A DNA stretch of 64,000 nt from a virus (lineage: Duplodnaviria; Caudoviricetes): positions 32,001 to 96,000 of the IMG/VR virus record IMGVR_UViG_3300033072_001172. One strand, 5' to 3'. This document shows, one piece after another, positions 1,898 through 19,118 of the stretch. Within the stretch, counting starts at the first letter, position 1. The number at the start of each line of letters is the position of its first letter. The position numbers and the translations under genes were made by a program. The notes beneath the pieces were generated by a model. It searched no databases. It saw only the letters and a list, made by a program, of their open reading frames with translations, and was not told the origin of the DNA.

Positions 1898-2497
1898 ATG
1901 GCCGAGGATCGTTTCACCGAGCAGTTGTCCACAGCGCTGCCCGGCGCCAAGCCGAAAACACGGCCGCGCGGCCCGCAAACATCTGAGGCTGCGATCGAAC
2001 GGGCCCTGCGGGAGACAATGCCGGCCGCTGCCGGTGGCTCCGGTCGCCCGAGCCACCAGGTGTACGTCAACCCCCGATACAGCCTGCTGTTGCACACCGC
2101 ATGGACCAACAGCGATTCGCTGACCGGAACCAAACTGTTGTGGCAGTGGGAACGTGAGCGACGTCTCTACAATCTTGTGGCGTCACTGCACGGGACACGG
2201 TTCATGGTCGACGGGAACGATAGTCGTATGATTGTAGATAAGGACTCCAAGTTCACTGAGCAGGTGGTGAGCCTGGAGTTCATCGACTTGGCCGTGAAGT
2301 TGAAGCCAGCTGAGTTCATCACACGGGATCCGTTTGATCTGCTGGTCGAGTACGGTGTCGATTTGCCGCCGTACGTGGACCCGGAAAAACAGATCGCCGA
2401 GGTCAAGCAGGAAGTCAAGGCGATCAAAAAGACAGTGACCAGAAAAAGCGCGTCAAGATCACGTAAAAGGCCGGCCACCCGCGGCAAACGAACATGA
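1898..2497 (+). CDS. Hypothetical protein coupled to the RNAP gene
   Basis: About 200 aa with a basic C-terminal tail; its stop overlaps the RNAP start (ATGA at 2494-2497); start could be the GTG at 1892. Confidence 0.7.
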   Translation: MAEDRFTEQLSTALPGAKPKTRPRGPQTSEAAIERALRETMPAAAGGSGRPSHQVYVNPRYSLLLHTAWTNSDSLTGTKLLWQWERERRLYNLVASLHGTRFMVDGNDSRMIVDKDSKFTEQVVSLEFIDLAVKLKPAEFITRDPFDLLVEYGVDLPPYVDPEKQIAEVKQEVKAIKKTVTRKSASRSRKRPATRGKRT

Positions 2498-5400
2498 ACT
2501 ATCTTGAACGCTTCCAGCAGTACGCCGACAACATCAAGCGCCACACAGAGGCTATTTTCCCGATCGAGTCCCGGCGCAAACGGCTGGAAGTGTCGAATGT
2601 ACGGATCGAGGACGCCAGCGCCGAACGAGCACACAACTGGTCTGACTTTCAAAAGGCCAAGGAAAATGATCGCTCGTTCATGGGGCGCATCGTCGGCGAC
2701 GTCAAGCTGCTGGACAAAGCAACCGGTAACGTCCTGGAACACAAGAAGGGCTACACGCTGAACATGTTCCCGCATGTGACCGCGCTCGGGTCCTATGTGG
2801 TCAACGGGAAAGACCTGCAGGTGGTCAACCAGCTGCGCAGGCGCCCTGGCGCGTACCCGGTGATCACCGCCGACAACAACACCGTCACCAAGGTTACCGC
2901 GGCCGGGCTCAACCACGAAGCGATCCTTGACCGCGAAACCGGCCAGTTGCTGCTCAAGGTCAAGTCGAGCCACCTGAAGCTGGTGCCGCTGCTTCAGGAG
3001 TTGGGCGTCCCGCGTGCCGACCTGGAAAAGCACCTCGGTGCTGAGCTGGTCCAGAACAACCAGCCAAAAACCGGCGCCCGGTCTGAGTTGTTGCGTTTCT
3101 ACCAGCTGAACCGTCGCATTGCGCCGCCGGCCGAAGCCGCCGAACAACGCGACTCCATCATCAAGTACCTGGCGAGCAAGCGTGTTGACCCTGACGTAAC
3201 CCAGGACACGCTGGGCCACCGGCACGACCACGTGTCACCGTTGCTGTATCTGCATTCAGCGAAAGCCGCGGTTGATGTGGCCAAGGGCCACCGGCAACCG
3301 GCGGACATGGAATCCCTGGTGTACAAGTCCGTGCACTCCATTGAGGATTTCGTCGATGATTCGCTCAAAGAGGCCTACCCGCAGATGAAGCGCCGGTTGG
3401 CCTACATGATGGACCGTAAGAAGGATCTGAAGTCCTTCTTGAACGTGAACCAGCTCTCGCGCCCGATCATCAACAAGTTTGTCACGTCGGAGTTCACCCG
3501 TTTCTCGGATCAGTCGAACCCGATGGAGATTCTCGGGACCATGCACACCGTGACCAGCATGGGTGAGGGCGGCATTCAGTCGGAGCACGCGATCACGGAC
3601 GCGCTGCGCAACGTACACAACTCGCATTTTGGTTTCCTGGACCCTGTGCACACACCGGAAGGCCCGGGTATCGGCGTCATCGGCCATTTGGCCATGGGCG
3701 TGCGCAAAGTCGGAAACAAACTTGTGCGGGAAGTTTTCGACACGCACGAGAACAAGCTGGTGACGGCCAGCCCGGTCGAGATTGCCCGCGGAGGGATTGC
3801 GTTCGCGGATCAGTACAAAAAGAACCGCGCCGGTAAGATGGAGCCGATCGCGGCCAAAATCACTGCGATCACTCCGGATGGCAAGATCGATCAGGTGCAC
3901 CACTCGAAGATCCGGTACGTATTGCCCAACGCCACGGATGCCTTTTCGCTGATCACTAACGCCATTCCGTTCCTGCACGCCAACAGCGCTAACCGCATGT
4001 TGATGGCCGACCGTCACATGGAGCAGTCGGTGCCGCTCACCGAGCGTGAGGCGCCGCTGGTCCAGGCTGAACTGCACGGAACCGGCTACGACCAGCTGAT
4101 GGGGACAATCGCCGGTAAAGCTGCTGATGGACCGGGGCGGGTCAAGTCTGTGCGTGACGACCATCTTCAGGTCGTCTACGACAAAGACCCGAAGACCGTC
4201 CACAAGATTTTTTACTCTGACGCGTATCCGCTGAACGCCGGCACCGTGCTCAAGATGACGCCCGCCGTCAAACAGGGACAACGCCTGAAGAAGGGCATGA
4301 CCCTGCTGGACACCAACTTCACCAAGGATGGCGCCCTGGCGTTGGGGCGTCCGTTGGTGACGGCGCTGATGCCCTGGCGCGGTTACAGCTTTGAGGACGG
4401 TATCGTCATCAGCGAGGCGGCCGCACACAAGCTGGCCAGTGAACACCTCACAGAGCACAAGGCCGAAAAAGAGCCTGGTGTGCATGTCGGGTTCGACAAG
4501 TTGTACGCGGCGTACCCGGCGGAGCGCGAGAAGAGCACCACTCACCGGATGCCGAAAGTCGGTGACGTGGTCAAGCCCGGTCAGTTGCTCATTCCGGTTC
4601 TGCGGGAGGTCGGCATCAATCCGGACACGGACTATGCCAAGGTGCACAAGGCACTTCGGCAGCCGTACATGAACGCGTCCGTTTACTGGGATGGCGGGAC
4701 AGACGGCGTAGTCAAAAAGGTCATTCAGAACGCCGGCGTCGTCAAGGTGTACGTGGAGTCCAAAGAGCCCCTGGTGGTCGGTGACAAGCTCAGCAGTCGC
4801 GCCGGATCCAAGGGCATCGTCACGCACATCATACCGATGGACCAGATGCCACGTACCAAAGACGGGCAGCCCATCGACGTGCTGTTCAACCCCTACGGCG
4901 TGCCCGGGCGCGTGAATCCGACGTTTCTCTTTGAGAACGCAGCCAGCAAGATTGCGCGCAAGACCGGCAAGCCTTATCTGTTTCCGGCGTTCGACACCAC
5001 GAACAGTGTTGCAGAACGCCTGCAGAAAGATCTCAAGCAGCACGGTCTCTCCGACACGGAGACTGTGGTTGACCCGACGCATAACGAAGAGCACAAGAAC
5101 GTCATGGTCGGGGAGAACTACTGGCTGAAACTCCGTCATCAAGTGAAGAAGAAATGGGCGGCGCGCTCGCATGAAGGGCCGTACACCGTGGACGAGCGTC
5201 CTGTCCGTGGCGGCCACGAATCCGCCCAGGGCATCGGCCCTCTGGATCTCTACGCCTTGTTGTCCAACGGCTACACCAACTTCCTGCACGATGTGTCGGG
5301 CATAAAATCCACGAAGAACACAGACTACTGGGCCGCTTTCCAGCTTGGAGTGCCCACACCGCCGCCGAAGCGGCCGTTCATCCTGGACAAGTTCGAAACG

Positions 5401-8400
5401 TACCTGCAGGGTGCCGGTATCAACGTGCAACGGCAAGGCGACACGTTGAAGGCAAGTCCGTTTACGGACAAGGATATCAAGCAGCGCTCTAACGGTGCGA
5501 TCACGGCGCCGCAAGTGTTCCGTGTCGGTAAGTCCGGGCTGCTGCCTGAACGTGGCGGCTTGTTTGACCCGGAAACAACGGGCGGTCATGGCGGCACACA
5601 CTGGAACCACATTGAGCTGGCGGAACGCGTGCTGAACCCGTTGTACGAACAACCGGTGAAAGCCATTACAGGCATGGCCATGAAGGATCTTGAGGCCATT
5701 CTGGAAGGCCGGAAGCTCGTCGACAACAGGACGGGCGGCGAAGCTATTGCGCACATACTCGGCAAGATCGATGTCAAACAGGAGTTGAAGGACACCAGCG
5801 CCGCCCTGAAGGATGCGCCGGCGTCCAAGCGCGACGGCATGTTGCGAAAACTGCGGTACCTGGCTGCTCTGGATAAACTGGGGATGTCGCCGGTTGAGGC
5901 CTACACCAACAAGACGATTCCTGTGATCCCGGCAAAGTACCGGCCGGTGTACGATCTCCCCGACGGCTCGCTCAACGTCAGCGACGTCAACCACGGGTAT
6001 CGTGAAGTTCTCATGATCAACCGTGAGCTGGAAAAGCTCAAGCAGCAGGGCGTGTCCCACGAGCACCTGGCCGGTCTGCGCGAGGGTCTCTACAAGGCGT
6101 ACTCAGGCCTTGTCGGCCTGACTGAGCCCGTGACCCGTTCCGGACACTTCAAAGGATTCATCAGCCAGATCGCCGGTAATCAGAACAAACACGGCCTGTA
6201 CCAGGCCAAGGTTGTCATGCGCCGCCAGGATCTTTCCGGGCGGTCAGCCATCATCAACGGGCCGCATCTCGGCATGGACGAGGTCGGCATTCCGGAGCGC
6301 ATGGCGCGTGACCTGTACAAACCGTATCTGGTGCGGTCCCTGGTAAACCTGGCCGGTCTCAAGCCGGCGGACGCACGCAAAGAAGTCGAGACAGGGTCGG
6401 CGCGAGTGAACTCGTTGCTGGACTCGGAGATGAAACAGCGACCCGTGCTGCTGAACCGTGCACCGGCCCTGCACAAGTTTTCCGAAGTAGCGCTCATTCC
6501 GCATCGCGTGCCCGGTGACGCCATTCATCTGAATCCACTGGTGTTCGGTGGCCTCAACGCCGATGTGGACGGCGACGCGTGCTTCAATTACACGTTTCTA
6601 GCCGTACCACCGTACTTGACTAAACACGAATCTCTTGCAGAATGGGTCCTTCATCATCAGGTGGAAGGGCCTATGGCGGCAAGAATTCGAGAGTCAGTAG
6701 CCTACCTTGACAAAAACGACACCTTGGTCGTCTGTGACCTTGAGGACTTCCCACGCAGCGAGATTGTGGGCCGCAAGGATCACCGCACTTTCTTCTCGGT
6801 GCCACCAGGCATCCGGGCGATCGCAATCGACGAGAAGACCGGTACGATGGTCGCCGCCCCGGTTCAATACTGGTCACGCCACGAAAACATCCAGGTTGAG
6901 ATCGTTACCCTGACCAGTGGCAAACAGATCATCAGCGACGATGATGAACGTGCCGTTTACGGGGTTGACTCTTCGTCGCTTCAATGGTGCCGTCGCAGAC
7001 CGACTGAGGCCAAGAACCAGCTTGTTCCGGTACTGAGCAATTTGCCTGTCGATCGCTCAGTGGTTATGGCCGTGAACTGGCGGGACCAGACCGAAGGCCG
7101 AAAGCTGGACCTGAGCACGAAGCTGGAGTTGACGAGCAAGGCTGGTTACTTTGTCGGTGCGCACATCGGCGATGGATGGGCTACGAGTAGCAGACCGAAC
7201 GGCACCCCAAACCAAGTACATCTCGCTTCTATCTACCCTGAAGTCACGGAAGCTTGGGTAGCTGCTGCGGCGACACTGTTCGTTGACGGTGAGCGCCCTC
7301 ACATGCATTCCGTCGATGTTTACGGCGGCAAGCTTGGTAGCAATCCTGATGGGGCAACGACACGACACACGATCAGCCATACTGGTTTGGCCTCGAAGAT
7401 GCGTGTACTTGTCGGCCATGGTGCCGCCAACAAGCATCTTCCGCCGTTCTTCTTCCGGGCTCCGGACGAGTTCCTGCTTGGCATGTTGGCCGGGCTGTGG
7501 GACACCGACGGCACTGCGTACTGGAGCAACAGCAAGAAGAAGCCGCAGTTCGCGTTCACCTACCAGTCGAATAGCTTGCGGCTGGTCAGAGAAATCAAAA
7601 TCGTGATGCTCCTGCTGGGAGTAGAGACACACATCGTTGCGACGAAAACACCAAAGGGGGAACCCACTTGGGTTCTTCAGACGTCCCTTCCGTCTCTGCA
7701 CAAGGCGGGGCTGGATCTGCCACTGAAGCACCAGGCCAAGTTGCGGGCTTTCCGTGAGTTCATGGACGGACCGGCCCCCGCGACCAAGAACAGCTACAGT
7801 CAAAAACGCCTCGTTCCGTTGCCGCAGGCATTGTCCGAAGAACTGGCCAAGTTCTTTTCAAACGGCAGCCGCGGGCAGAAAATGGCCAGCGAGTACGTCG
7901 TATTGCGGCGTGATGGTAAGCGCGGGCACATGACCAAAGAAACTGCCCGCAAGGTTATCGAGGTGGTGGGGGACCGTTGCAACCACCCTCTCTACCCACG
8001 CTGGCGCGAGCTGGTTGAGGCCGAGCATTATCACTTTGAGGCAGTTACCAAGGTCGAGGTAACGGACATTCCGGAAACGGGCTACGATCTTACGGTGCCC
8101 GGCCACGAAACTTTCCTGTCACTCGATGGTGTCGTGCTCTCGAATACCGTCGGTGTTCACATACCGCACTCGGAACTGGCGCGCGAGGAGTTGTTGAAGA
8201 ATCTGCCGAGCCGCAACATCATGTCGCCGAAATCGGGCGACGTGCAGCACAGCGTCGGCAAAGAGGCCACGCTCGGGCTGTACATGATGACCACGCCGCA
8301 TCGCAATCAGGAAACAGTCTCGGTCAAGAGTCCGGGCGAGGCCGTTGAGAAATACCAGCAGAAAAAGATTCAGCTCAACACTCCGCTGCATGTCGCGGGG

Positions 8401-10056
8401 CGTGACGGTACCTGGACGGTCGGGCACTTCCTGCTCAACGCGGAGCTTCCCGAACAGTACAAGCTGAAGAAGCCGATGGCGGTCGGAGGCAAGCAGTATA
8501 AATCGCTGATCAACAGCCTGGTGGCGTCGCACCCGGACCAGGCCGGCCGCGTCATTTCGCGCATGAAGGACCTCGGGTTCGATGCCGTGACCCGCCTGGG
8601 TTTCTCTGTGAATCTGAAAAGCCTGACTGAGAACAACGCGGAGCGCGACCGCGTCGCCAAAGAAGTCGAGCAGATCATGAAGACGGATCCCGAGGGCGCG
8701 GTGCGTCACGCCGAGAAGCGCCTGGAGGAGATCCTGGACAAGCACGTAACTGAGGAGAATCCGTTCGCGCTCATGTCGTACAAATCCGGAGCGTCGAACA
8801 AACACCGAATCAATGTCCGTCAGCTGATCCTGGCTCCGGGCGGTGTCACCGACCTGAAGGGCCGCATCGTGCCCATTCCGCTGATGCGCTCGTACGCTGA
8901 CGGTCTCACGCTGCCGCAGTATTGGGCGACCATGCCCGGCGCCCGCAAAGGCATCGCGGACCGTGCCGTGTCCACCCAGGATACCGGCGCGTTCAACAAG
9001 GAACTGGTCAACACCACAATCGGAGTGCGTGTGACCGACAAGGACTGCGGCACCAAACACGGTATTTCGCTGCCCGCCGACCACCCGGATTTGCCCGGGC
9101 GCTGGATCGCTTCGGGCGCGCATGCCGGACAGTTGATCACGTCGGATCTTGCTGTGCAGCTGCGGAAAGAAGGTAAGCCGGTCATGGTGCGGTCTCCCAT
9201 GACGTGTGCGCTCGTGGAGGGAGTGTGCCAGCACTGTGCCGGCCTCAATGAGGCGAGTCGTCCGCACCCGATCGGTTTTCACATCGGCGCCTATGCCGGA
9301 ACAACCATCACAGAACCGATCACGCAGATGGTGTTGCGCGCGTTCCACAGTCAGGGCGCGGTTGGCGCCGGCGAAGTCGGTTACAAGCGCATCCGTCAGA
9401 TTTTCACAATGCCGCAGAACATTCGCGGCAAGGCCACACTGGCCAAAGACACCGGTCAGGTGTCCGAAGTAATCACGACGGACCGCGGCGGCTGGGATGT
9501 CGTGGTCAACGGGATAAAGCACTTTGTTCCTAACGAACTTGGCCTGGCAGTTAAGGTCGGCGATCACGTCAAGCAGGGCGATCAGCTGTCCAACCACGGT
9601 GTGCTGAAGATCCAGGAGGTCGCGGAGTTGCGCGGGCATGAAGCCGCACGCGACCAGTTGATCAAGGACCTGGACTCGGAGATGAGCGCGGCCGGCCAGA
9701 ACATTCGACGTCGCATCTATGAAGTGGCCATGCGCCCGCTGATCAACCGTGTAGAAGTGCTTGACCCGGGTGACGCGGCGCGGCAAGGTGTTGTGGCCGG
9801 CGACGTGCTGAACGTAAACTACGTCAAGCAGTTGAACGAGAAACTGAAGACGCCGATCGAGTTCAAGCCCATCGTGATGTCGATCAAGGATGTTCCGTTC
9901 GTCGGGGAGGACTTCGTCGGCCCGTTGATGTACCAGCGGCTGCCGCGCACGTTGAGGGAGGCGCCGGCCGTTGGCGGAGTAACACACCTCAAGGGCGAAA
10001 AGGCTCACCCGATTGTTGAGTACGCCTGGGGTAACCTAGGCGACCAGAAGAAATGA
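2494..10056 (+). CDS. rpoBC: Single-chain fused beta-beta' DNA-directed RNA polymerase (intein-containing)
   Basis: beta motifs HTPEGPGIG, NRMLM, GYSFEDGIVIS, GDKLSSRAGSKG, KLRHQV; beta' motifs GGLFD, LLNRAPALHK, NADVDGD, bridge helix GARKGIADRAVST, trigger loop EPITQMVLRAFH; fusion junction near 5430-5445. Confidence 0.97.
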   Translation: MNYLERFQQYADNIKRHTEAIFPIESRRKRLEVSNVRIEDASAERAHNWSDFQKAKENDRSFMGRIVGDVKLLDKATGNVLEHKKGYTLNMFPHVTALGSYVVNGKDLQVVNQLRRRPGAYPVITADNNTVTKVTAAGLNHEAILDRETGQLLLKVKSSHLKLVPLLQELGVPRADLEKHLGAELVQNNQPKTGARSELLRFYQLNRRIAPPAEAAEQRDSIIKYLASKRVDPDVTQDTLGHRHDHVSPLLYLHSAKAAVDVAKGHRQPADMESLVYKSVHSIEDFVDDSLKEAYPQMKRRLAYMMDRKKDLKSFLNVNQLSRPIINKFVTSEFTRFSDQSNPMEILGTMHTVTSMGEGGIQSEHAITDALRNVHNSHFGFLDPVHTPEGPGIGVIGHLAMGVRKVGNKLVREVFDTHENKLVTASPVEIARGGIAFADQYKKNRAGKMEPIAAKITAITPDGKIDQVHHSKIRYVLPNATDAFSLITNAIPFLHANSANRMLMADRHMEQSVPLTEREAPLVQAELHGTGYDQLMGTIAGKAADGPGRVKSVRDDHLQVVYDKDPKTVHKIFYSDAYPLNAGTVLKMTPAVKQGQRLKKGMTLLDTNFTKDGALALGRPLVTALMPWRGYSFEDGIVISEAAAHKLASEHLTEHKAEKEPGVHVGFDKLYAAYPAEREKSTTHRMPKVGDVVKPGQLLIPVLREVGINPDTDYAKVHKALRQPYMNASVYWDGGTDGVVKKVIQNAGVVKVYVESKEPLVVGDKLSSRAGSKGIVTHIIPMDQMPRTKDGQPIDVLFNPYGVPGRVNPTFLFENAASKIARKTGKPYLFPAFDTTNSVAERLQKDLKQHGLSDTETVVDPTHNEEHKNVMVGENYWLKLRHQVKKKWAARSHEGPYTVDERPVRGGHESAQGIGPLDLYALLSNGYTNFLHDVSGIKSTKNTDYWAAFQLGVPTPPPKRPFILDKFETYLQGAGINVQRQGDTLKASPFTDKDIKQRSNGAITAPQVFRVGKSGLLPERGGLFDPETTGGHGGTHWNHIELAERVLNPLYEQPVKAITGMAMKDLEAILEGRKLVDNRTGGEAIAHILGKIDVKQELKDTSAALKDAPASKRDGMLRKLRYLAALDKLGMSPVEAYTNKTIPVIPAKYRPVYDLPDGSLNVSDVNHGYREVLMINRELEKLKQQGVSHEHLAGLREGLYKAYSGLVGLTEPVTRSGHFKGFISQIAGNQNKHGLYQAKVVMRRQDLSGRSAIINGPHLGMDEVGIPERMARDLYKPYLVRSLVNLAGLKPADARKEVETGSARVNSLLDSEMKQRPVLLNRAPALHKFSEVALIPHRVPGDAIHLNPLVFGGLNADVDGDACFNYTFLAVPPYLTKHESLAEWVLHHQVEGPMAARIRESVAYLDKNDTLVVCDLEDFPRSEIVGRKDHRTFFSVPPGIRAIAIDEKTGTMVAAPVQYWSRHENIQVEIVTLTSGKQIISDDDERAVYGVDSSSLQWCRRRPTEAKNQLVPVLSNLPVDRSVVMAVNWRDQTEGRKLDLSTKLELTSKAGYFVGAHIGDGWATSSRPNGTPNQVHLASIYPEVTEAWVAAAATLFVDGERPHMHSVDVYGGKLGSNPDGATTRHTISHTGLASKMRVLVGHGAANKHLPPFFFRAPDEFLLGMLAGLWDTDGTAYWSNSKKKPQFAFTYQSNSLRLVREIKIVMLLLGVETHIVATKTPKGEPTWVLQTSLPSLHKAGLDLPLKHQAKLRAFREFMDGPAPATKNSYSQKRLVPLPQALSEELAKFFSNGSRGQKMASEYVVLRRDGKRGHMTKETARKVIEVVGDRCNHPLYPRWRELVEAEHYHFEAVTKVEVTDIPETGYDLTVPGHETFLSLDGVVLSNTVGVHIPHSELAREELLKNLPSRNIMSPKSGDVQHSVGKEATLGLYMMTTPHRNQETVSVKSPGEAVEKYQQKKIQLNTPLHVAGRDGTWTVGHFLLNAELPEQYKLKKPMAVGGKQYKSLINSLVASHPDQAGRVISRMKDLGFDAVTRLGFSVNLKSLTENNAERDRVAKEVEQIMKTDPEGAVRHAEKRLEEILDKHVTEENPFALMSYKSGASNKHRINVRQLILAPGGVTDLKGRIVPIPLMRSYADGLTLPQYWATMPGARKGIADRAVSTQDTGAFNKELVNTTIGVRVTDKDCGTKHGISLPADHPDLPGRWIASGAHAGQLITSDLAVQLRKEGKPVMVRSPMTCALVEGVCQHCAGLNEASRPHPIGFHIGAYAGTTITEPITQMVLRAFHSQGAVGAGEVGYKRIRQIFTMPQNIRGKATLAKDTGQVSEVITTDRGGWDVVVNGIKHFVPNELGLAVKVGDHVKQGDQLSNHGVLKIQEVAELRGHEAARDQLIKDLDSEMSAAGQNIRRRIYEVAMRPLINRVEVLDPGDAARQGVVAGDVLNVNYVKQLNEKLKTPIEFKPIVMSIKDVPFVGEDFVGPLMYQRLPRTLREAPAVGGVTHLKGEKAHPIVEYAWGNLGDQKK
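6577..8145 (+). mobile_element. Intein with LAGLIDADG homing endonuclease inside the RNAP active-site loop
   Basis: Removing 6577-8145 restores NADVDGD-TVGVHIP (cf. NADFDGD-QMAVHVP); ends GYDLTVPGHETF..VVLSN/T; LAGLIDADG-like helices FVGAHIGDG and LAGLWDTDG; first residue is Ala (6577) or Cys (6580). Confidence 0.93.
6616..6675 (+). promoter_or_regulatory. Possible sigma70-like promoter, RBS and in-frame ATG inside the RNAP intein
   Basis: TTGACT (6616)-N16-CAGAAT (6638), GGAAGG (6663), in-frame ATG (6673), in a locally AT-richer patch. Confidence 0.3.
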
Positions 10057-11189
10057 AAGACACCGTAAACAAGAACGTTTCCCGCGCCGACGGACACTTC
10101 GTCGGCTTCGTTCTTGCGTACGATGTTGACCGGCAAACGTATCGTGTACGCCTCACCGACAGCAATCGGCAACCTGTTCAGTGTCCGGCGCTGGACACCG
10201 GTGCCGACAGTCCGTACGCCGTCGGTGACCGTGTCGCTGTGCATCACTACCATGACTACGGTTTTGTGGTGGTTGGGCGCCTGCCCGTGCCGCTGTCTCA
10301 GCTGCCGTTAACACCACAAGAACCGAACGACACCACGCCCGTCTCCATAAAATCAGGTGATGCCCTGTCCTACCGGGACGTCCTGGACAAGGAAGCCTCC
10401 CTGTACGCCGAGGCCGGCGACATGTCTGTGCGGCGCGGGGCGTCCAGATTCTTCCTCAGCAAGACTGGTGCTCTGCTGATGCAGGTCGCGGTGACGTGCT
10501 CACGTTACATGTCCAAAACGCTGTCGACGATCAAGGACATCTGCTACACCTACATCTTGTCGCAACCTGGTGTCACCGCGGTCAGCCGTGTGGATATGGA
10601 CCAGACAAGCCCCTCCGTGGGGCAGCCCCAGATGTCGCTGGAAGTCGTGCCGAAGGATACCGCCAACACGATTACTGGACGTCTTGGCGGCGGTGTGCTT
10701 GACAGCGGCGACGACGGGCTATCATTGGCGATGGGCCAGCTGGTCAAGCTGATGCTCAAGTTGACTAAGGCAAACCCGCTGCTTGAGTACACGCACGGCG
10801 ATGGGCGAACCAAGGTGCAAATTGATCTTCAGCAGTTCTTGCTGCAGTTCGGCCAGGCCCAGTTCGTGTGGAATGCCACCGGGCTGACCATCACCCAGGG
10901 AGCATCCCGCCTGGCGCTTACTGCCGCCGACATCCTTGAGATTGTGTCTTCAGGCCTTACCATTTTGCTGAGTGGTAATGTGGACGTGCAGGCCGCGGGG
11001 TTGAATGTGAACGCGCCAGCGGTGTTCGTGACCCCTGTGAAGATTCAGGGATTTGACGCGTTGACCGTATACAACACGTTGAACTCACTGATTCTGGCTT
11101 TCAACGCCCACATCCATCAGGTGGGTCCGATCCCGTCAAGTCCGCCGGCTGGCGCCGGTGCTGTGCTGCCGGTGATACCGACCCCGTAA
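10053..11189 (+). CDS. Baseplate central spike (gpV/gp5-like)
   Basis: N-terminal OB-fold-like segment (YRVRL..VGDRVAV..VVVGRL), beta-strand repeats, C-terminal FNAHIH (HxH) apex motif followed by SSPP. Confidence 0.7.
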   Translation: MKDTVNKNVSRADGHFVGFVLAYDVDRQTYRVRLTDSNRQPVQCPALDTGADSPYAVGDRVAVHHYHDYGFVVVGRLPVPLSQLPLTPQEPNDTTPVSIKSGDALSYRDVLDKEASLYAEAGDMSVRRGASRFFLSKTGALLMQVAVTCSRYMSKTLSTIKDICYTYILSQPGVTAVSRVDMDQTSPSVGQPQMSLEVVPKDTANTITGRLGGGVLDSGDDGLSLAMGQLVKLMLKLTKANPLLEYTHGDGRTKVQIDLQQFLLQFGQAQFVWNATGLTITQGASRLALTAADILEIVSSGLTILLSGNVDVQAAGLNVNAPAVFVTPVKIQGFDALTVYNTLNSLILAFNAHIHQVGPIPSSPPAGAGAVLPVIPTP

Positions 11190-11202
11190 CGAGGATTGAC
11201 CC

Positions 11203-13290
11203 ATGGCGTCATCGACGTTCTACGCGAAACGGCCCGCCCCCCAAACGTACACCACGAAGGTGGCCGACGTGCGCCTGCCGTACGATGGCACGAAATGGCA
11301 GGAGGAGATCATCGGTGCGCTGCACGAACAGCACCCGTACCTGCCGAACACACAACTGCAGCTGTCGATGAACGTTCGCAACGTCAAGCAGGGCTACGCG
11401 ATCGGCAACCTCAACGTGTCCGACCGGGTTCGGATTCCGGTGATTATCGATCAGTTCCTGCTGAAGCCGTTCGACATGTTTCTCAAGGACGGCCAGTTGC
11501 ATCCGCTGAACAAGAGCACGCTTCTGGCCGCGTTGGAGGCTCGCAATTTCGGGACGGCAACACCCCCTGGTCAAGGTGAGTCGTCGGACGTGTTTCTCAC
11601 GAACTCTCGCCCGCCGTATGACGGCAAGTACACGTTCGCTTCTGCCCAGGACAAACATGCTTTTTTGGGCATGTTCAACAAGCGGAAAGACCAGGCGGGA
11701 GCGGGCGGCCGCGACCCTTTCCATGTTGATATCAAACAGCTCGCCGCCACAGACCACGGCATGGACGACCGGCTTGTCCAGAAGTTGCTCAGTTCACCTG
11801 GTGGGCGTATTTACTTGCAGATGATGCTGAGCGGTCAGGTTTCGCCGCCAAAGAAAGAGAAGGCGCACGGCAAGCTGGGAGCCTGGACCGAAGGCAAGCC
11901 GGAAGAAGTTGAGAAGGCGCTGACGAACGTGTTCGGCGCTGACGGTGCCGAATACTACATGGCGGGCGACCCCGCGGTGAAGGAAGTACTGGAGAACGCC
12001 AGAAAGGGTGACTTCTCCAAGATGAAGCACCACGGCTCCGTGCGCAAAATGCTTGAAACCAACGCGCAGCGCAAGATCGCCATGGTCAAGCAGTCTGCTG
12101 TGCATTTGCCGGATCAGCCGACTGACGAGCTGGTTGCCGGCACCGTCAAGGTCGCCAACGCGGGCGGCGCGCTGGTCGGTGGTCTGTTGTTCGACCGTGT
12201 GTACGACCTGGCGTTCGGTACGCGCAACGACGCCCTGTTCTTTGTCGAACCGGACGTTGGCTTCGACAACAACCGCGTGTTCTACGGGCAACAGTCAATC
12301 AAACAGGCGGAGCTCAAGGAGTTCAGGAAGAACTTCCAGAACATCGAACCGAACGTCGGGGACACCGGTGTCTGGTTCTGGTTCGAGGGGGACAAGCTGG
12401 CCTGTACCTCGGTGGCGCGAATCGTCGACCGCCAGCAGCACAGCCAGACCTATTTCGTGCGTGGCGGTGGCTCCGTCAAGCTGAGCCACTCAGTGGTCAC
12501 CAAAAACGACCTGGTGGCCGCCGGCGCCCCGGAAGGCGACACGCTGGTGGTGCCTGGCACCGCTCTCTGGTTGCCGGTCCCCCAGAAGCGTGCCATGTAC
12601 GGGCGCCCGGCCACGAATTTCACCCGGGATTACCTGCTGGTGCAGGAGGCACACGGCAATGTCAAAGTGTCCGTGTACCAGAACAACATGCGGCATGTCA
12701 TGCACGACGCCATGCTGCCCTCGCAGGCCGAAAAGTGGCTCCACAACTATTACGAGCCGGAGTCAGTTCAGACGATCATGACGGCCGCGCGCAACAACGG
12801 CACCGTCAAGATCGCGGCGCACCCCGGCATGTTCGTCACGGAGACCAAGACGGCCACGATCGACCTGGACACGATGCTGACTCGCATCCGTGAACAGGCC
12901 AAAGTCGCCGCGGACGCCTTGTTCGTGGTGAAGGACGCTGACTTCGGTCCTCTGACCAACTACGACACGACGGCGCTCGGCAAGGTGGACCCGATGGCGG
13001 CAGCGATCGTCAAAGCCGCGACCGACATCGAAGACGACGAGCGCGCCCGCAGTGTTGACAACGTGCTGGGCTTGAACATCATCAACGACCAGAACATCCA
13101 GAGATTCCTTGACGGCATCGACGGCCTGGACCGGTGCAAACAGTTCTGCATGAAATTGTTGCTGGCGGCGCGACTTGGTCTTAACATCGACGCGAACGCG
13201 GCACGCACGGCTGCCTTCGCCCTGGAGTCGATCATTCAGGATCTGGAGCAGCTGCGGCACGCAACCATGTCGGCCTCTGACGGTGAGTAG
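11203..13290 (+). CDS. Hypothetical virion/head protein (695 aa), K-x-A rich
   Basis: GAGGA RBS; coding-like codon bias; KIA, KVA, KQA, KTA, KAA motifs. Confidence 0.75.
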   Translation: MASSTFYAKRPAPQTYTTKVADVRLPYDGTKWQEEIIGALHEQHPYLPNTQLQLSMNVRNVKQGYAIGNLNVSDRVRIPVIIDQFLLKPFDMFLKDGQLHPLNKSTLLAALEARNFGTATPPGQGESSDVFLTNSRPPYDGKYTFASAQDKHAFLGMFNKRKDQAGAGGRDPFHVDIKQLAATDHGMDDRLVQKLLSSPGGRIYLQMMLSGQVSPPKKEKAHGKLGAWTEGKPEEVEKALTNVFGADGAEYYMAGDPAVKEVLENARKGDFSKMKHHGSVRKMLETNAQRKIAMVKQSAVHLPDQPTDELVAGTVKVANAGGALVGGLLFDRVYDLAFGTRNDALFFVEPDVGFDNNRVFYGQQSIKQAELKEFRKNFQNIEPNVGDTGVWFWFEGDKLACTSVARIVDRQQHSQTYFVRGGGSVKLSHSVVTKNDLVAAGAPEGDTLVVPGTALWLPVPQKRAMYGRPATNFTRDYLLVQEAHGNVKVSVYQNNMRHVMHDAMLPSQAEKWLHNYYEPESVQTIMTAARNNGTVKIAAHPGMFVTETKTATIDLDTMLTRIREQAKVAADALFVVKDADFGPLTNYDTTALGKVDPMAAAIVKAATDIEDDERARSVDNVLGLNIINDQNIQRFLDGIDGLDRCKQFCMKLLLAARLGLNIDANAARTAAFALESIIQDLEQLRHATMSASDGE

Positions 13291-13292
13291 CC

Positions 13293-13649
13293 ATGTCGAA
13301 CGCCATTGCCAAAGTAAAACGTGTGTCAGTACGGCGACGGCTTGAAAACGTCAGACGTGATCCGAACAGCACGTTCTTCGGTAAGAACGTAAAGGTCGCC
13401 AACGTTCTCAGGTTGAGGGAAGCATTGTCCTCGGAGAACCTTCGCGAGATCGTTGCTCATCTTCTTAATGTCCGTCCGGCGAACGTATCGAGTGCTGTCG
13501 CCCAGCTGACACTTGACCAGTTGTCGAAGTTGCGGGAACTGGTCCAGAAGGTCAGCCGGCAACTGCATCGGGAAGTTGCTCGCCAACGGTGGGAAGCGAC
13601 AATGTCTCCGCCGAAGAAGGCACCGTCCAATGCCGCTCAGTCGGTCTGA
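13293..13649 (+). CDS. Small basic hypothetical protein
   Basis: 118-aa ORF filling the operon gap. Confidence 0.6.
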   Translation: MSNAIAKVKRVSVRRRLENVRRDPNSTFFGKNVKVANVLRLREALSSENLREIVAHLLNVRPANVSSAVAQLTLDQLSKLRELVQKVSRQLHREVARQRWEATMSPPKKAPSNAAQSV

Positions 13650-14712
13650 ACTGGCCGCTAAGTACGCGCTATCCGAGCAAACGCTCGTTCAGCTTGAGGA
13701 GCTGGACGACAGCCCGTTGATTGACGGTTCCAATCAGAAAACAGTCCGTGGACGCATCGTCTACGAAGTAACACCGGAACTTGATCGCTGGCTGCGGGTT
13801 GGCCGCACGCAGTTCACCCAGTTCCGTGGCCGGCTGATGCCGTGTCAGCGCGCCATTTTCAGCGCACTGATCGCAGAGGCCGACGTAACACGGGCCTACT
13901 CGTCCTTGCGTGAGCGCGGGGTCATTCCGCCGTTCATGAACGCGAACTTGATCGGCGTGTACTGGCAGGAACTTTTGCGCCTGGCGCCACCGGAATGCTT
14001 GCCCTTTCTTACCGGCCAGCAGCAGGAGCCTGATGACCTCAGCAGGTTGATGATGCAGCAGCTGGGCATTCTGGATGCGTTCGAGGATCCGGAGCGTCTG
14101 GCGGAGAAGTTTTACTGGCTGAACACACCTGATCTTCGCGTGCTCACAGACGCGTTTCTGGCCGTGCAGTCGGACACCCAAACCTTGAAGAAGTACCTGT
14201 CGGATGCGCATCGTTTCGATGTGACGGATGCGAGTATCCGCGAGTATCGCCGGTACTTTTTCGACATCGCCGTTTGCGGCATGGAGGGCGCCGCGGCCTT
14301 TGCCGACCTGGCAGCGTCACCACAATACCGGAGCGTGGTCGGTAACGCTTTGCGCGATGGCACCCTGGGCTCCGTGGTGTCCGAGCTGAAACTGAGCTCG
14401 TTGATCGACCATCGAATTTCGTTGGAGGCCGCCCTCACACGCAGCCGCGCGTTTGTGGCGACCAACCCGAGCAAAAGCGCCGGAGTACAGGCGCAGGTCG
14501 GCGCGTTCAAGGCCATGCAGGACCTGTACTACACCGTACACACGCTTGAGCACGCCAAGGACAAGGATGAGGGGACAAGCGACGCCGCGATGATGGAAAT
14601 CCTGAAGCTGAAGCACAACCAGACCGTCAACGAGAATCAGCTGTCGATTAACGACATTCCAAAAGAGGCACGCGATGCCATTGTCACTGGTCCGGTCAAA
14701 GCCAGATCATAA
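13630..14712 (+). CDS. Hypothetical protein, candidate terminase small subunit
   Basis: ATG 13630 (MPLSRS) follows GAAGG; helical; directly upstream of and overlapping TerL; function inferred from position only. Confidence 0.5.
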   Translation: MPLSRSELAAKYALSEQTLVQLEELDDSPLIDGSNQKTVRGRIVYEVTPELDRWLRVGRTQFTQFRGRLMPCQRAIFSALIAEADVTRAYSSLRERGVIPPFMNANLIGVYWQELLRLAPPECLPFLTGQQQEPDDLSRLMMQQLGILDAFEDPERLAEKFYWLNTPDLRVLTDAFLAVQSDTQTLKKYLSDAHRFDVTDASIREYRRYFFDIAVCGMEGAAAFADLAASPQYRSVVGNALRDGTLGSVVSELKLSSLIDHRISLEAALTRSRAFVATNPSKSAGVQAQVGAFKAMQDLYYTVHTLEHAKDKDEGTSDAAMMEILKLKHNQTVNENQLSINDIPKEARDAIVTGPVKARS

Positions 14713-16309
14713 TGACGAAGCCGCCGTCATTGCCAGCTATACCGACGCGTTTCGGAATCTGATTTACGTTCAACGCGATAAACGCTTCGACGTCGACAGC
14801 CGTCAGTATCTCCCGGTACTGCTTGAGTCGTCGGCACCTGAGTTCACGCTCAAGTGTGGACGCCAGGTAGGCAAGACACAAACCATCTGCGGAATTTTAG
14901 GCCTGCACGGCGCCACGACGCCAGGCTACGCCCACATGTACATCACGCCGCGAGGCGATCAGGCCAAGGACGTGTCACGTAATAAGTTTTCGACGATGAT
15001 GCGCGACTCACCCTTTCTGCACAAGTTCGTGCCCGGTCAGCGTTCACGTGATGAGTCGTGGCAGCTGGGCATGAAGATGCTGAAGAACGGCGCTCATTTC
15101 TATTTCATGTCCGCGTACCACACAGCGGACGCCATCCGCGGGCGTTCGGCCGGCTACCTGGTAAAGGACGAAATCCAGGACTTGATCGCCGACCACATGG
15201 CGCCGATTGACGAGTGCGCAGCCAACTTTCCTGACGCCAGGTTCTTTAACTGCGGTACCCCCAAGACATTTCAGAATCTTCTGGAACAAAAATGGCAGCG
15301 CTCCACCCAGGCGGAATGGCTGGTCAAGTGCGCCGCGTGCGGTCATTGGAACTTCCAGGATCACAAGATCCTCGGCAAGAAGCACTACGTGTGCGTGAAA
15401 TGTGGCGGGCAGATCCGCATCGAGAACGGTCAGTGGGTCATGGGCAACCCGGATCGTTTTTCGGTTCATCAGGGTTTTCGGATCTCCCAGTTCATGAACC
15501 CGAACACACGCTACTGGCGTCTGATTGAGAAGCTGGAGACATACCCGTTTGCCCAGTTCTGTAACGAAGTTCTCGGGATCAGCTATGCGGAAGGCGATGT
15601 CGTTCTCACCAGGGACGACATTCTGAACGCGTGCGATGACAATACGCCGATGTTGCGTCGGGTCCCGACAAGATTCGGCATCGTTGTGCATGGCGGGGTT
15701 GACCACGGTACCGGTAACATGGCGGCCAAACGGGCCCGCGGTCTCACACAGGCCTCGTTCACTGTGGTTGCTACCGGCGGGTTTGACAGTGAAGGACGTT
15801 TTCGCGTGTTGTCGTTGCAACGACTGACCGGATCGGATTCTGATCTGTCGGCCCAGCCGGCTGTCATCAATAACATCCTGCGCAAGATGAACTGTCGCTT
15901 CGTGATCTCTGACTGGGGGTTTGGTGCGCCAAATAACCGCCGGCTCATCAACGAATTCGCCTGGGACCCGTCGCGGTTTTTTGAGATCCAGGAGTCGGAC
16001 TCATTGGGCAAGTTTGTGGCGTGGAACGACGCCGCCGGACGGTACATCGTCAATCGCAGCGAGATGTTCATGAAGGTCATTGACGACATCAAAAATCGGC
16101 GCATCGTGTTTCCGCGGCGCCAGGACATGGAGCCGTTCATTCAGGACTTCACGTCGATTTACGTCGAGCTCGACGCCGACCACAACAAACGCCGGTACGA
16201 TCACACCAACCCGGATGACGCCTTCCACGCGGTGGCCTTTGCGTATCTGGCCGCGTTAATGGACGCCGGGCTGCTGAGCAGATTCAATCTGGTACCGGAT
16301 GTGACTTGA
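14675..16309 (+). CDS. terL: Terminase large subunit
   Basis: Walker A KCGRQVGKT, IRGRS, Walker B LVKDEIQD, GTPK coupling motif, CAAC..CVKC zinc finger, nuclease GGVDHG and DDAFHA. Confidence 0.93.
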   Translation: MPLSLVRSKPDHNDEAAVIASYTDAFRNLIYVQRDKRFDVDSRQYLPVLLESSAPEFTLKCGRQVGKTQTICGILGLHGATTPGYAHMYITPRGDQAKDVSRNKFSTMMRDSPFLHKFVPGQRSRDESWQLGMKMLKNGAHFYFMSAYHTADAIRGRSAGYLVKDEIQDLIADHMAPIDECAANFPDARFFNCGTPKTFQNLLEQKWQRSTQAEWLVKCAACGHWNFQDHKILGKKHYVCVKCGGQIRIENGQWVMGNPDRFSVHQGFRISQFMNPNTRYWRLIEKLETYPFAQFCNEVLGISYAEGDVVLTRDDILNACDDNTPMLRRVPTRFGIVVHGGVDHGTGNMAAKRARGLTQASFTVVATGGFDSEGRFRVLSLQRLTGSDSDLSAQPAVINNILRKMNCRFVISDWGFGAPNNRRLINEFAWDPSRFFEIQESDSLGKFVAWNDAAGRYIVNRSEMFMKVIDDIKNRRIVFPRRQDMEPFIQDFTSIYVELDADHNKRRYDHTNPDDAFHAVAFAYLAALMDAGLLSRFNLVPDVT

Positions 16310-16347
16310 AAGTAAGGGCCCGGTGTAGATTATTTAGGCTGACGACC

Positions 16348-17913
16348 ATGCGTAACTGCCTGACGAAAGCATCGCTTTTCGAGCCCAAGAAATCCGAGAC
16401 ATTCTCGGCTGTTGGTCCTTACAAGACCAAACAGCAGTGGCTTCCTTCCGCCGGGAAAGGTGTGCCTGGCGAAATGATCAACCTGGTGAAGACCCCGCGG
16501 GCCAAATCGCTCGATGAACTGAGCGCCCAGGATCCGGTGGCCCAGGCCATGCAGACGCTCCTGCTGATGCAGCTGGTGGCCGGTCAGTCCGGCAACAAAC
16601 CGATGATCGGTCCGGAAGCTGCCGGGCCGCTCATTGGCGCCCAGCTGTTGACGGATGACAAGAAGACTGCGGCGGCCGACAAACCAGACAAACTGGAGGA
16701 GCTTGCCGGTAAAGGCATACACGGTTACGCCAAGAATATCGTCAAGCAGCTGACTCCTGAGCACTACGCGGCCGCCGGCGGCAGCACGACCGAAGAAACA
16801 GTGCGGAACCTGGTAGAGGACATCATCCCGCGGCAGCTGGTGCGCGAACACGCCGCCCGCCTCGGGCGCGGCAACGTTGATCTCGGCAGCCGCATGCTCG
16901 AACAATACCTGTCGGCGTCCCTGCAGGACACTGGCGAAACTCTGCCGCGAGTGCTGACCCGCATGCTGACCGGACACGTGCAGGGTATGCGCGAGGCCGA
17001 CAAACAGAAGGCCATGCTGGACTTGAACATTGACGCTGGATTGCCGCACAAAACCAAAGCCGCCCCCTCGTGGCTTGACATCATCAAGAAGAACGCGCCG
17101 AAACCGGAACATGATCCGAACCGCGGACAGCATGCGTTGTCTCCGGCAGACGATGTGTCCAAGTACGGTTCGGCGCCTGGTTCGATTCCGTACCGGCCGG
17201 AAGTTCTGCAGGAAAAGTTGGCGACATTCTTGGGAACAACCAAAAAAGTTCTCACACACCCATTGACGCTCGGTCTCGGCGCCGCGGCCATGCCTGTCGT
17301 TCTCGATAGTGCGTGGCCGTCGATTTTGGCCGGTGGGCTCGGCGTGGCTGGCGGTGCATTGGCCCATCATATGATGGGCCCGCGCAAACTCGATCTGTCC
17401 GACAAGAAGATCGATCCGTTTTACCAACCGGTCGACGGCAAGGCTCGCGCGTTGACGGTTGATCCGGACATCCTGCGGACGGTGTTTGCCGAGAATCCTC
17501 AAGTCGGCGCCCTGGCACGGTCAGTAGACCCTAAGACACTGGCTATGTTGGGAGCTGCAGGAGATCCGACTGTCAGCGGTAAGTTCCGGCGGTTCATGGC
17601 GCACATCAGCGGACAGGGACGCGCGCTGGACAATGCCGAACAAGTACTCAAGCACATCGTGTATGCAACTCACGGTGATGTCGGCCGGAAAGACTGGCGA
17701 GACCACCTGGAGACGATTACCGGGCAGCAGGGGCACCGCTCTGGTGAATTCCTGTCGGACATTCTGCGGTCAGCCACCGGTAACCGCGGGGCGCTTGGCG
17801 GCATGAGCGCCGCCAGGTCGTTGTTCGGTAACATGAACATCAAGGACGATTTTGGTGACCAGGTGCGTCAGCTTCTGCTGCAGCGTCTGGCGGTACCGGC
17901 TCAAGCGAGGTAG
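16348..17913 (+). CDS. Putative internal/ejection virion protein
   Basis: KTA and KLA motifs; Gly/Ala-rich hydrophobic segment after EKLA; start may be the TTG at 16306. Confidence 0.6.
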   Translation: MRNCLTKASLFEPKKSETFSAVGPYKTKQQWLPSAGKGVPGEMINLVKTPRAKSLDELSAQDPVAQAMQTLLLMQLVAGQSGNKPMIGPEAAGPLIGAQLLTDDKKTAAADKPDKLEELAGKGIHGYAKNIVKQLTPEHYAAAGGSTTEETVRNLVEDIIPRQLVREHAARLGRGNVDLGSRMLEQYLSASLQDTGETLPRVLTRMLTGHVQGMREADKQKAMLDLNIDAGLPHKTKAAPSWLDIIKKNAPKPEHDPNRGQHALSPADDVSKYGSAPGSIPYRPEVLQEKLATFLGTTKKVLTHPLTLGLGAAAMPVVLDSAWPSILAGGLGVAGGALAHHMMGPRKLDLSDKKIDPFYQPVDGKARALTVDPDILRTVFAENPQVGALARSVDPKTLAMLGAAGDPTVSGKFRRFMAHISGQGRALDNAEQVLKHIVYATHGDVGRKDWRDHLETITGQQGHRSGEFLSDILRSATGNRGALGGMSAARSLFGNMNIKDDFGDQVRQLLLQRLAVPAQAR

Positions 17914-17915
17914 GC

Positions 17916-19115
17916 ATGCAGCTGACCAACATGCGCGTTACTGACTTCGCCCGTCAGGCGGCCGACGGCTACCTGGAGAACGGTGGCGACCTCAACAAGG
18001 CCGTGGCCAAATTGGCCAAGGACAACGAACTCACGCCGATGCAGATCCAGCGTGTCGTGGAAGCCGCGAACCATGAAGTGAACGCCCGGCAGTACAAGAC
18101 CGCGGAGGACAAGCGCTTCGTGTTTGAACTGGCTTCCCGCGACAAGGTGATGGAGTTGCTCGGCACCAAGGAAGCAGAGAGTGTGAAGACCGCCGCTGCT
18201 GACGTGGAATCGTTCTATGTGCTGGAACGTGATCGCCGGCAGCCGCCGCACACCAAGATTGCCTCGACCGATGATGCCGCCCGTTCGAAAGAAGGGCTGT
18301 ACACGCGCATGAACGATGTGTCGGCCGGCCGTGACGCGGCGCTGCACATGCTGGAGCGTTGCTACGCCAAGCTCAGCGAATATTCGCGCGATGTTCGTGC
18401 GGAAAAACTGGCTGTCGACCTGCGCCGCAACGAGAACTTCACCAAGTTCGTCAAAGAGGCGCAGCGGCTGATGCTGGAAGAGAACATCCCGTTCCACTTC
18501 ATGTTCAGTGGCTCACCCGGGCTGATCCACCCGGAAGTGAAGGAGGCCATTTTCAAGGACGCACACGCGCAGTTGACCAAGCGCGCCAACTCCGTTGAAA
18601 AAGCGTTGCTGGCCAAGTTTGACCCCAAGGCCAGCAAGGAAATGGGCATGGAGGTGGTTAACGGAAACCAGCCCCTGTTCATTCATCTGCGAGCGACCGC
18701 TGGTGACGCCATCAACAGTTTCGGCGTCGGCTGCGTGAGCGACGCTGTGAACAACTGCCTGGCCGGCGTGGTTACCGCGATTCACCAGTTGAACAGCGAC
18801 AAGGACGTCAAGCGTTACATCGAGCAGGAAGTCCAGCCATTCGCCAACAACGTGCAGCGTGGCGTCAAGTACGCCATGGCGTACGTGCGCGAACACGCCA
18901 ACGACAATACCTGGCTGGCCAAAACTGCGAACTGGTCCGGTGTGGTGTCCATGCTGGACAAAATCGGCCGGATCTTCCAGCTGATCAACCAGGGCGGGCA
19001 GGCCGCGGAATCGGCCGGTGGCAACATGTCTCGCTACGTGCGTGATCTCATGTCCCCCGCGTTCGTGGAAGGTGGTCAGATCATCAACTCGACCGGACTG
19101 TCCAAGGCAAAGTAA
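17916..19115 (+). CDS. Putative internal head protein, K-x-A rich
   Basis: GAGG RBS; KLA, KTA x3, KIA, KEA, KRA motifs. Confidence 0.7.
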   Translation: MQLTNMRVTDFARQAADGYLENGGDLNKAVAKLAKDNELTPMQIQRVVEAANHEVNARQYKTAEDKRFVFELASRDKVMELLGTKEAESVKTAAADVESFYVLERDRRQPPHTKIASTDDAARSKEGLYTRMNDVSAGRDAALHMLERCYAKLSEYSRDVRAEKLAVDLRRNENFTKFVKEAQRLMLEENIPFHFMFSGSPGLIHPEVKEAIFKDAHAQLTKRANSVEKALLAKFDPKASKEMGMEVVNGNQPLFIHLRATAGDAINSFGVGCVSDAVNNCLAGVVTAIHQLNSDKDVKRYIEQEVQPFANNVQRGVKYAMAYVREHANDNTWLAKTANWSGVVSMLDKIGRIFQLINQGGQAAESAGGNMSRYVRDLMSPAFVEGGQIINSTGLSKAK

Positions 19116-19118
19116 CTG

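Follow-up and report, generated by a model that had tools for sequence, protein, structure and literature searches.

How is an intein removed from the active site of an RNA polymerase if it has neither a nucleophile at its first residue nor the histidine expected in its block B? The question is raised by a virus of the Caudoviricetes (Duplodnaviria; IMG/VR record IMGVR_UViG_3300033072_001172), of which we analysed positions 32,001 to 96,000, i.e. 64,000 nucleotides (hereafter the window, to which all coordinates refer). The open reading frame (ORF) at 2494-10056 of its + strand, the strand of all the features of this gene described below, encodes a single-chain beta-beta' phage RNA polymerase of 2520 amino acids, and the catalytic DxDGD of this protein is followed directly by a 523-residue intein (6577-8145), in which a Hint splicing domain is split by a LAGLIDADG homing endonuclease. 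As detailed below, this intein very probably is a real member of a family devoid of both the residue-1 nucleophile and the block B histidine. To the statement taken whole, namely that the family forms a mobile, site-specific clade splicing by a class-2-like attack of the first C-extein residue (Thr+1), we give an even chance.

The limits of the insert were drawn from intein-free homologues. A comparison of residues 1000-1354 of the polymerase with 5.8 billion proteins returned 404 relatives, mostly fused polymerases of ~2000 amino acids encoded on contigs of up to ~200 kb. The nearest intein-free homologue (P0004), 84-87% identical on both sides of the site, reads NADVDGD/TVGVHVPH, and the seven close ones (P0004, P0006-P0010 and P0012; 62-84% identity) all follow the pattern DGD/T[VLI][GA][VL]H, with no Ala. 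Moreover, the spacing of the loop (DGD, three residues, a hydrophobic residue, then His, Phe or Tyr) is constant in 94 of 94 intein-free alleles, none of which has a longer loop, and a profile search placed the C-extein Met(+2) on M466 of Escherichia coli beta', with Thr+1 at Q465. Since these homologues read DGD/T without Ala and keep the loop spacing constant, the insert starts at Ala, with Thr at +1; it corresponds exactly to ACFNY...VLSN. At the DNA level, the junctions read AAC GCC GAT GTG GAC GGC GAC / GCG TGC TTC ... CTC TCG AAT / ACC GTC GGT. The Mg-binding aspartate triad, DVDGD, is thus encoded at 6562-6576 and its last Asp (6574-6576) is the -1 residue of the intein, followed by Ala1-Cys2 (6577-6582); the Thr+1 codon lies at 8146-8148, immediately after the terminal Asn. 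The original prediction had already placed the insert directly after NADVDGD with Ala as its first residue, and the intein-free homologues, which read DGDT and not DGDAT, agree with it; its location stands, and only its range (6556-8148) has to be narrowed to 6577-8145, as it took in the seven codons of NADVDGD and the Thr codon.

We then asked how common such an intein is. A phmmer search of the window intein against 1.84 billion cluster representatives gave 627 matches at E<=1e-3, of which 218 at E<=1e-30, and the family was assembled from the best 150 of these 627, so that its 106 full-length members are a lower bound. At least 106 representatives of 497-573 amino acids are thus available, all inserted after DxDGD and all ending in N/T; about 27 further ones form a longer subgroup (~630 amino acids) with the same N- and C-terminal signatures and the same Asp(-1), a residue also found in 106 of the 106. 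Residue 1 is Cys or Ser in only six members; it is Gln in 44, Ala, Asp and Glu in 12 each, Leu in eight, Cys in five, Gly in four, Phe in three, and His, Met, Ser or Asn in one each. Residue 2 is Gln in 64, Cys in 13, Asn in eight, Val in five and Ser in four, the others being scattered. Read against this alignment, the Ala-Cys of the window departs from a Gln-Gln consensus, and neither position has a conserved nucleophile. In the splicing domain, by contrast with this variability, His102, Asp121, Asp123, Arg125, Asp504 and Asn523 are invariant, as is Thr+1, the only conserved nucleophile of the splice junctions (106 of 106 intein-bearing alleles). As these features are common to 106 representatives, they are not due to chance. 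The claim of a non-canonical intein is therefore stronger for the family than it was for one sequence, with two amendments: the insert belongs to a large clade and is no singleton, and its active site retains an invariant histidine, His102.

These counts also bear on the fallback offered by the original prediction, a start at Cys2 after which the catalytic loop would retain one additional Ala (DGDA-TVGVH); the intein would then be an ordinary class 1 one. A Cys does stand immediately after the Ala, and the very distant split homologues of phages Arash and D69 read DYDGDA; their Ala, however, sits at +1 within a loop of normal spacing (DGD-ALS-MY) and is not an additional residue. The close homologues read DGDT, no allele among the 94 has the longer loop that such a start implies, 64 of the 106 relatives have Gln at residue 2, against only ~17 with Cys, Ser or Thr, the structural alignment described below puts Ala and not Cys at position 1, and the block B His would be missing from this intein as well. 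We consequently rejected a start at Cys2 on residue-2 composition, loop spacing and structural alignment, and hold it to be hardly credible.

The fold of the insert is predicted with confidence. An AlphaFold2 model built on a 41-sequence alignment reached a mean predicted local distance difference test score (pLDDT) of 87.3 and a predicted template modelling score (pTM) of 0.88, its weak stretches being confined to one endonuclease loop and to a variable helical segment inserted behind the first strand. Foldseek matched it to endonuclease-bearing inteins, namely TliVMA (E 6e-20), PI-PkoII and PI-PfuI, and VIA-align superposed the model on TliVMA with Z 20.2. The splicing domain taken separately matched the mini-inteins Aes123 PolB1 (9hth), PabCDC21-1 (6rpp), Pho RadA and Ssp DnaB with Z 15-18 and a root mean square deviation (rmsd) of 2.0-2.6 A over 140-164 residues. 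These matches span model residues 4-8 to 530-537, bringing the N and C termini together, and in several entries model residue 8 (Ala1) falls on chain residue 1 and model residue 530 (Asn523) on the last. On this model, the insert has an intein (Hint) fold. A group I intron was rejected, as the reading frame runs on without a break and its product has the Hint fold.

The LAGLIDADG core (7138-7518), with motifs KAGYFVGAHIGDGWA and EFLLGMLAGLWDTDGTA and its acidic residues intact, is detected by Pfam LAGLIDADG_3 (PF14528; E 1.6e-10), and VIA-align matched I-DmoI and I-Tsp061I at Z ~16 over model residues 189-408; across the family, the acidic residues D199 (92 of 106) and D311 (101 of 106) are largely retained, together with the GDGW and DTDG motifs. 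A single-sequence phmmer search of PDB sequences returned nothing relevant. A 16-sequence profile was swamped there by beta' matches on the C-extein flank, and its intein alignments covered the endonuclease and blocks F and G, with none for the N-terminal splicing region. Likewise, NCBIfam models did not recognize the N-terminal intein region, and TIGR01443 scored 12.7 bits on the C-terminal one, below its cut-off; the family profile aligned with blocks F and G of the Ssp DnaB mini-intein at E 2e-6.

The variable helical insertion (6607-6720; pLDDT 43-54 at model residues 21-50) is otherwise unconserved, yet includes an in-frame ATG (Met33, 6673-6675) preceded by GGAAGGG (region 6661-6675). 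This column is Met in 61 of the 106 members, Val in 19, Ile in 13 and Leu in seven, and three database proteins (P0149, P0153 and P0210) start exactly there. The endonuclease may have an internal start at Met33, or natural split forms may be divided at this point.

Which catalytic residues does this splicing domain hold? In its block B variant, QIISDDDERAVYG (6925-6963), position 7 is Ser120, and the His expected at position 10 is replaced by Asp123; all 106 members have Asp121, Asp123 and Arg125, and 96 have Asp122. Upstream lies a W-S-R-H stretch (6871-6882), where His102 and a Ser or Thr at position 100 are both found in all 106 members and the Trp in 94. Blocks F and G, ETGYDLTVPGHETFLSLDGVVLSN (8074-8145), comprise Asp504 at block F position 4, the penultimate Ser522 at block G position 6 and the terminal Asn523 at block G position 7; Asp504 and Asn523 occur in 106 of 106 members and Ser522 in 103, the other three having His. 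The absence of the block B His, the Ser-Asn end (...VLSN/T) and the block F Asp (GYDLTV) without the class 3 W-C-T signature, all read by the original prediction from one sequence, are accordingly family traits. The three W-C-T positions are occupied by Arg125 (block B position 12), Asp504 and Leu521 (block G position 5); with this signature absent and an invariant Asp at block F position 4, class 3 membership was rejected.

As an intein, the insert has the general features expected: it is in frame, absent from close homologues, adopts the Hint fold in the model and ends in Asn followed by Thr+1. Its assignment to a class is less direct. Class 1 calls for Cys, Ser or Thr at residue 1 and His at block B position 10, where the window has Ala and Asp123. 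Cysteine-less oxyester inteins have Ser at residue 1, a residue found in one of the 106 members. Tori et al. define class 2 in sequence terms as inteins with no N-terminal nucleophile and no W-C-T (PMC2807308), and the window intein fits this rule; among the residues involved in class 2 activation, the Ser/Thr of block B position 7 and the block F Asp are present, while the block B position 10 His is replaced by Asp, and the Cys+1 of class 2 is Thr in 106 of 106 alleles. By its sequence, the family is thus class 2-like under the published rule and not a strict member of class 2. The suggestion of a new splicing variant has to be modified in this sense: the intein does not formally fall outside all classes.

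The invariant His102 deserves attention. Pasch et al. described a histidine of the NX motif that is conserved only in inteins with Ser1 and Ser+1 or Thr+1, and that was essential in the three inteins tested, the block B His being dispensable in PolB16 (PMC10189870). In Tko Pol-2 and Psp Pol-1 it stands 23 residues before the block B His, as in the Tko Pol-2 sequence ...ALIRHPY...RIKITGSHSLF (PMC10189870, supplement). His102 stands 21 residues before Asp123, on the equivalent strand. Because the spacing is similar and the His is shared with Ser1 sibling inteins, His102 is probably the NX-motif His as far as these alignments go, although no more than 39 of 106 members have Arg or Lys immediately before it.

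The sibling inteins in question are carried at or beside the same site by other members of the polymerase family. Type IV opens with [SC]SINSV, which corresponds column for column to the QQINSV of the window family, and its block B reads S-T-D-H. Type III has Ser at residue 1, a block B of S-E-H-H and a THN/T end; the first residue of types II and V is Cys. When these inteins were aligned jointly with MAFFT, the window family's residue 1 coincided with the Ser1 or Cys1 of the siblings, its Asp123 with the block B His of types III and IV, and its His102 with a His of types III, IV and V. A quick maximum-likelihood tree, unrooted, places the 24 sampled members on one side of a branch with an SH-aLRT support of 99, the few Cys1 or Ser1 members being scattered inside the clade and not basal. 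The simplest reading of these sequences would be a single loss of the residue-1 nucleophile together with the block B His-to-Asp change, after which residue 1 drifted; the clade would descend from Ser1/Thr+1 ('oxyester') inteins.

Is such an intein still active? Its frame is open throughout, and its endonuclease motifs retain their acidic residues. Thr+1 is found in 106 of 106 intein-bearing alleles versus T 63, A 26, S 3 and Q 1 among the 94 intein-free ones, an enrichment that a need for a +1 nucleophile would predict, whereas cleavage alone would not require Thr. Although members may be only ~35% identical, the same 18 positions, Asn523 and Thr+1 among them, never vary, which shows purifying selection. 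The intein is also mobile: that of P0126 is 72% identical to the window intein for an extein identity of 46%, and the inteins of P0123, P0125 and P0128 are likewise more similar than the exteins to their window counterparts. P0005 (77% identity) carries a different intein type, and P0004 has a near-identical polymerase with no intein. From these comparisons, intein and extein histories are decoupled. Finally, a 523-residue domain beside the Mg site is hard to square with polymerase activity, and the intein has to be spliced out to restore ...NADVDGD-TVGVHIP.... The whole points to a genuine, still-mobile intein on whose removal the host polymerase would depend; splicing itself, and the order and chemistry of its steps, we infer from sequence.

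The opposite reading, a splicing-dead or cleavage-only insert that inactivates the polymerase or leaves beta' in two pieces, may draw on the missing canonical N-terminal catalytic residues, on an earlier nucleophile-less candidate which proved to be a pseudogene (PMC3196547), and on the estimated completeness of the record, only ~69%, which makes a second polymerase possible. It has to contend with a frame open over 2520 codons, with more than 100 diverged members that keep 18 invariant residues and a Thr+1 unneeded for cleavage alone, and with an extein 84-87% identical to its intein-free homologue. Moreover, the only beta' catalytic domain found in the record is that of the 2494-10056 product, which the insert would leave with a bulky domain next to its Mg site. 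We thus consider this reading very improbable.

If the intein splices, then by which chemistry? Since residue 1 offers no nucleophile and block F position 4 is Asp and not Cys, a direct attack on the Asp(-1)-Ala1 bond would be the first step. The hydroxyl of Thr+1 would attack this amide, yielding a branched ester; Asp504 would activate Thr+1 together with a His102/Asp121/Asp123 relay resembling a protease triad, and Arg125 would help to polarize the scissile bond. Asn523 would then cyclize, and an O-to-N shift would form the DGD-T peptide bond. Class 2 provides a precedent, with Ala1, Ser at block G position 6, direct attack by the +1 residue and Asp at block F position 4 (PMC4031507). Several points weigh against this proposal: Thr at +1 is a weaker nucleophile and block B position 10 is Asp, while known class 2 inteins use Cys+1 and need the block B position 10 His (PMC4031507); the earlier candidate without nucleophile and without the W-C-T Cys, from Arthrobacter FB24, is the pseudogene mentioned above; and His102 is likened to the NX His by its position and by the sibling inteins, as an hhalign comparison of the family profile with the short 41-residue NX-to-N3 segment of Tko Pol-2 (PMC10189870, supplement) was not significant. 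On balance, our analysis gives the specific Thr+1 route a little less than an even chance.

The main rival is an extein-assisted reaction, in which the side chain of Asp(-1) would attack its own backbone carbonyl, breaking the Asp-Ala1 bond and forming on the N-extein a cyclic anhydride that Thr+1 captures, before Asn cyclization and acyl shift, the acidic D-D-D cluster donating the proton. All 106 members have Asp(-1), as do the ~27 long-form ones, including those with DFNGD triads; it is never replaced, whereas other triad positions are in some hosts; this invariance, however, is dictated by the polymerase motif and the homing site, and proves nothing by itself. The variability at residue 1 fits a reaction in which its side chain takes no part, and an invariant acid cluster stands in place of the His. 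Cleavage at Asp-Xaa via a cyclic anhydride is established, and is reported as an intein-promoted side reaction next to a flanking Asp (PMC7897204, citing Minteer et al. 2017), but productive splicing by this means has no experimental precedent. Opening at the wrong carbonyl would also leave an isoaspartate in the catalytic loop, and the Ser1 and Cys1 siblings handle the same Asp(-1) by ordinary chemistry. We regard this route as unlikely.

An internal nucleophile acting in the manner of class 3, i.e. the carboxylate of Asp123 or Asp121, or Ser100, with an acyl or anhydride branch then passed to Thr+1, is more improbable still. Class 3 sets the precedent of an internal nucleophile standing in for residue 1 (PMC2807308), D121 and D123 never vary and are specific to the clade, and position 100 always bears a hydroxyl. 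However, the class 3 site itself (block F position 4) always holds Asp, as it does in class 1, and W-C-T is absent; S100 and H102 are shared with siblings that keep Ser1, hence are not a clade-specific replacement; and forming a mixed anhydride from an amide is energetically costly. More broadly, the family might represent a fourth mechanistic class of splicing, in which the first acyl transfer proceeds with no residue-1 or block F nucleophile, through either the Asp(-1) anhydride or a protease-like Thr+1-His102-Asp relay, D-D-D-x-R replacing the conserved His; this we put forward as a rather doubtful possibility.

With direct attack by Thr+1 retained as the preferred route, the gene that hosts the intein can be described further. 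Pfam domains follow one another in the 2520-residue protein in the order Rpb2 3 and 6, then Rpb1 1, 2, 3 and 5, and are interrupted by LAGLIDADG_3 and a weak Intein_splicing match. The N-extein (2494-6576) comprises the beta-like part and the N-terminal part of beta' (Rpb2_3, Rpb2_6, Rpb1_1 and Rpb1_2), ends in the catalytic NADVDGD and is 84% identical to P0004; the C-extein (8146-10056; TVGVHIP...) holds the remainder of beta' (Rpb1_3 and Rpb1_5), is 87% identical to P0004 and aligns with bacterial beta' from E. coli M466 onward. The spliced chain would count ~2000 amino acids. A search with the N-extein in viral_contigs found no close relative, and the relatives from named phages, Vibrio phage D69 and Salmonella phage Arash, are remote (~27-29% identity), their polymerase gene being split ~90 codons downstream of DxDGD.

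The record, linear and 133.9 kb long, shows phage-like gene packing, and the polymerase gene is placed among virion and packaging genes; the large terminase subunit is encoded at 14675-16309. Among the large ORFs near the polymerase (42-1895, 1892-2497, 10053-13290, 13513-14712 and 16306-21157), nine of ten had no PHROG match at E<=1e-5 or none beyond a family of unknown function. Annotation is practically lacking for this phage lineage.

The insertion site itself is much visited. At least five intein types occur around the DxDGD codons, in ~30 of the 120 listed polymerase relatives, and the Mg loop of the polymerases of these large phages is an intein hot spot; many polymerases, of 2900-3700 amino acids, must carry further inteins elsewhere. 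Several alleles with an intein have Asn as the middle residue of the catalytic triad (DFNGD or DHNGD in P0029, P0091 and P0103, and in P0223, P0249-P0252, P0255, P0256, P0259, P0265 and P0266), a substitution found in none of the 94 intein-free alleles; these triads occur with the Ser1...THN/T intein type and with the long form of the window family. Asn-Gly is a classic deamidation hot spot. Another sibling type, DxDGN/C...[YW]D/T (P0005, P0014, P0022, P0025 and P0106), has the third catalytic Asp encoded as Asn at -1, and its intein ends in Asp instead of Asn in five of five cases. Either the polymerase works with this Asn, as in archaeal PolD (N962; PMC7708050), or maturation restores the Asp.

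More than 100 diverged inteins, evidently under selection, thus do without a block B His and a residue-1 nucleophile in an essential active site. Being natural and abundant, they lend themselves to studies of how an ordinary amide bond can be activated by a Hint domain, and could yield a cysteine-free, histidine-poor splicing chemistry for protein engineering. Several intein lineages also compete at the phage Mg loop, so that polymerase maturation, and with it phage transcription, would depend on splicing.

How, then, does this family compare with known inteins? Reviews count three mechanistic classes and describe the block B position 10 His as the most conserved residue, with two exceptions, one of them a pseudogene (PMC4031507). 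Our literature searches returned no account of an intein placed at DxDGD of beta', nor of such a set of catalytic residues; the intein reported from a Staphylococcus jumbo phage is located in a different host protein, gyrase A. A close parallel in sequence features is class 2, all of whose members were KlbA orthologues as of 2014 (PMC4031507). The Methanocaldococcus jannaschii KlbA intein and its orthologues share with the window family a non-nucleophilic residue 1 (Ala in both KlbA and the window), a penultimate Ser, Asp at block F position 4, Thr or Ser at block B position 7, a terminal Asn and the lack of W-C-T. They have Cys+1 and His at block B position 10, whereas the window family has Thr+1 and an invariant Asp within T-D-D-D-x-R, a residue 1 that is mostly Gln and free to vary, a probable NX His, and a phage RNA polymerase instead of archaeal KlbA as host; no sequence relationship between the two is detectable.

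Like the window family, the cysteine-less Ser1 inteins (PolB16 OarG, Psp Pol-1, Tko Pol-2/PI-PkoII and Aes123 PolB1) use oxygen chemistry at their C-terminal junction, with Thr at +1, and have an invariant His on a strand ~21-23 residues upstream of block B; siblings of this kind occupy the same site, and the best structural matches of the splicing domain are found among them (9hth, Z 18.1; 2cw7, Z 19.4). However, they all have Ser as first residue and proceed through a linear oxyester, and where the 58 Ser1 inteins examined by Pasch et al. (PMC10189870) have a block B His without exception, the window family has Asp. Class 3 inteins (mycobacteriophage Bethlehem DnaB and others) also combine a non-nucleophilic residue 1, Thr or Ser at +1 and an association with phages, but have W-C-T, with its block F Cys, and the block B His (PMC2807308), where the window has Arg, Asp and Leu at the W-C-T positions. 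The class 1 CDC21-1 inteins of Tko and Pab likewise lack the block B position 10 His, and PabCDC21-1 matches well in structure (6rpp; Z 17.2, rmsd 2.0 A); they retain a nucleophile at residue 1, and a Lys located outside the motifs makes up for the missing His (PMC4031507). As for the insertion site, the intein of archaeal PolD DP2 (PolII) lies, in structural terms, at the corresponding point of a related two-barrel polymerase, directly after the third residue of the acidic metal-binding motif (N962/C963; PMC7708050), but it has a canonical Cys1, a -1 Asn and a DNA polymerase as host. The catalytic make-up of the window family therefore matches none of the three described classes, though it is certainly that of an intein.

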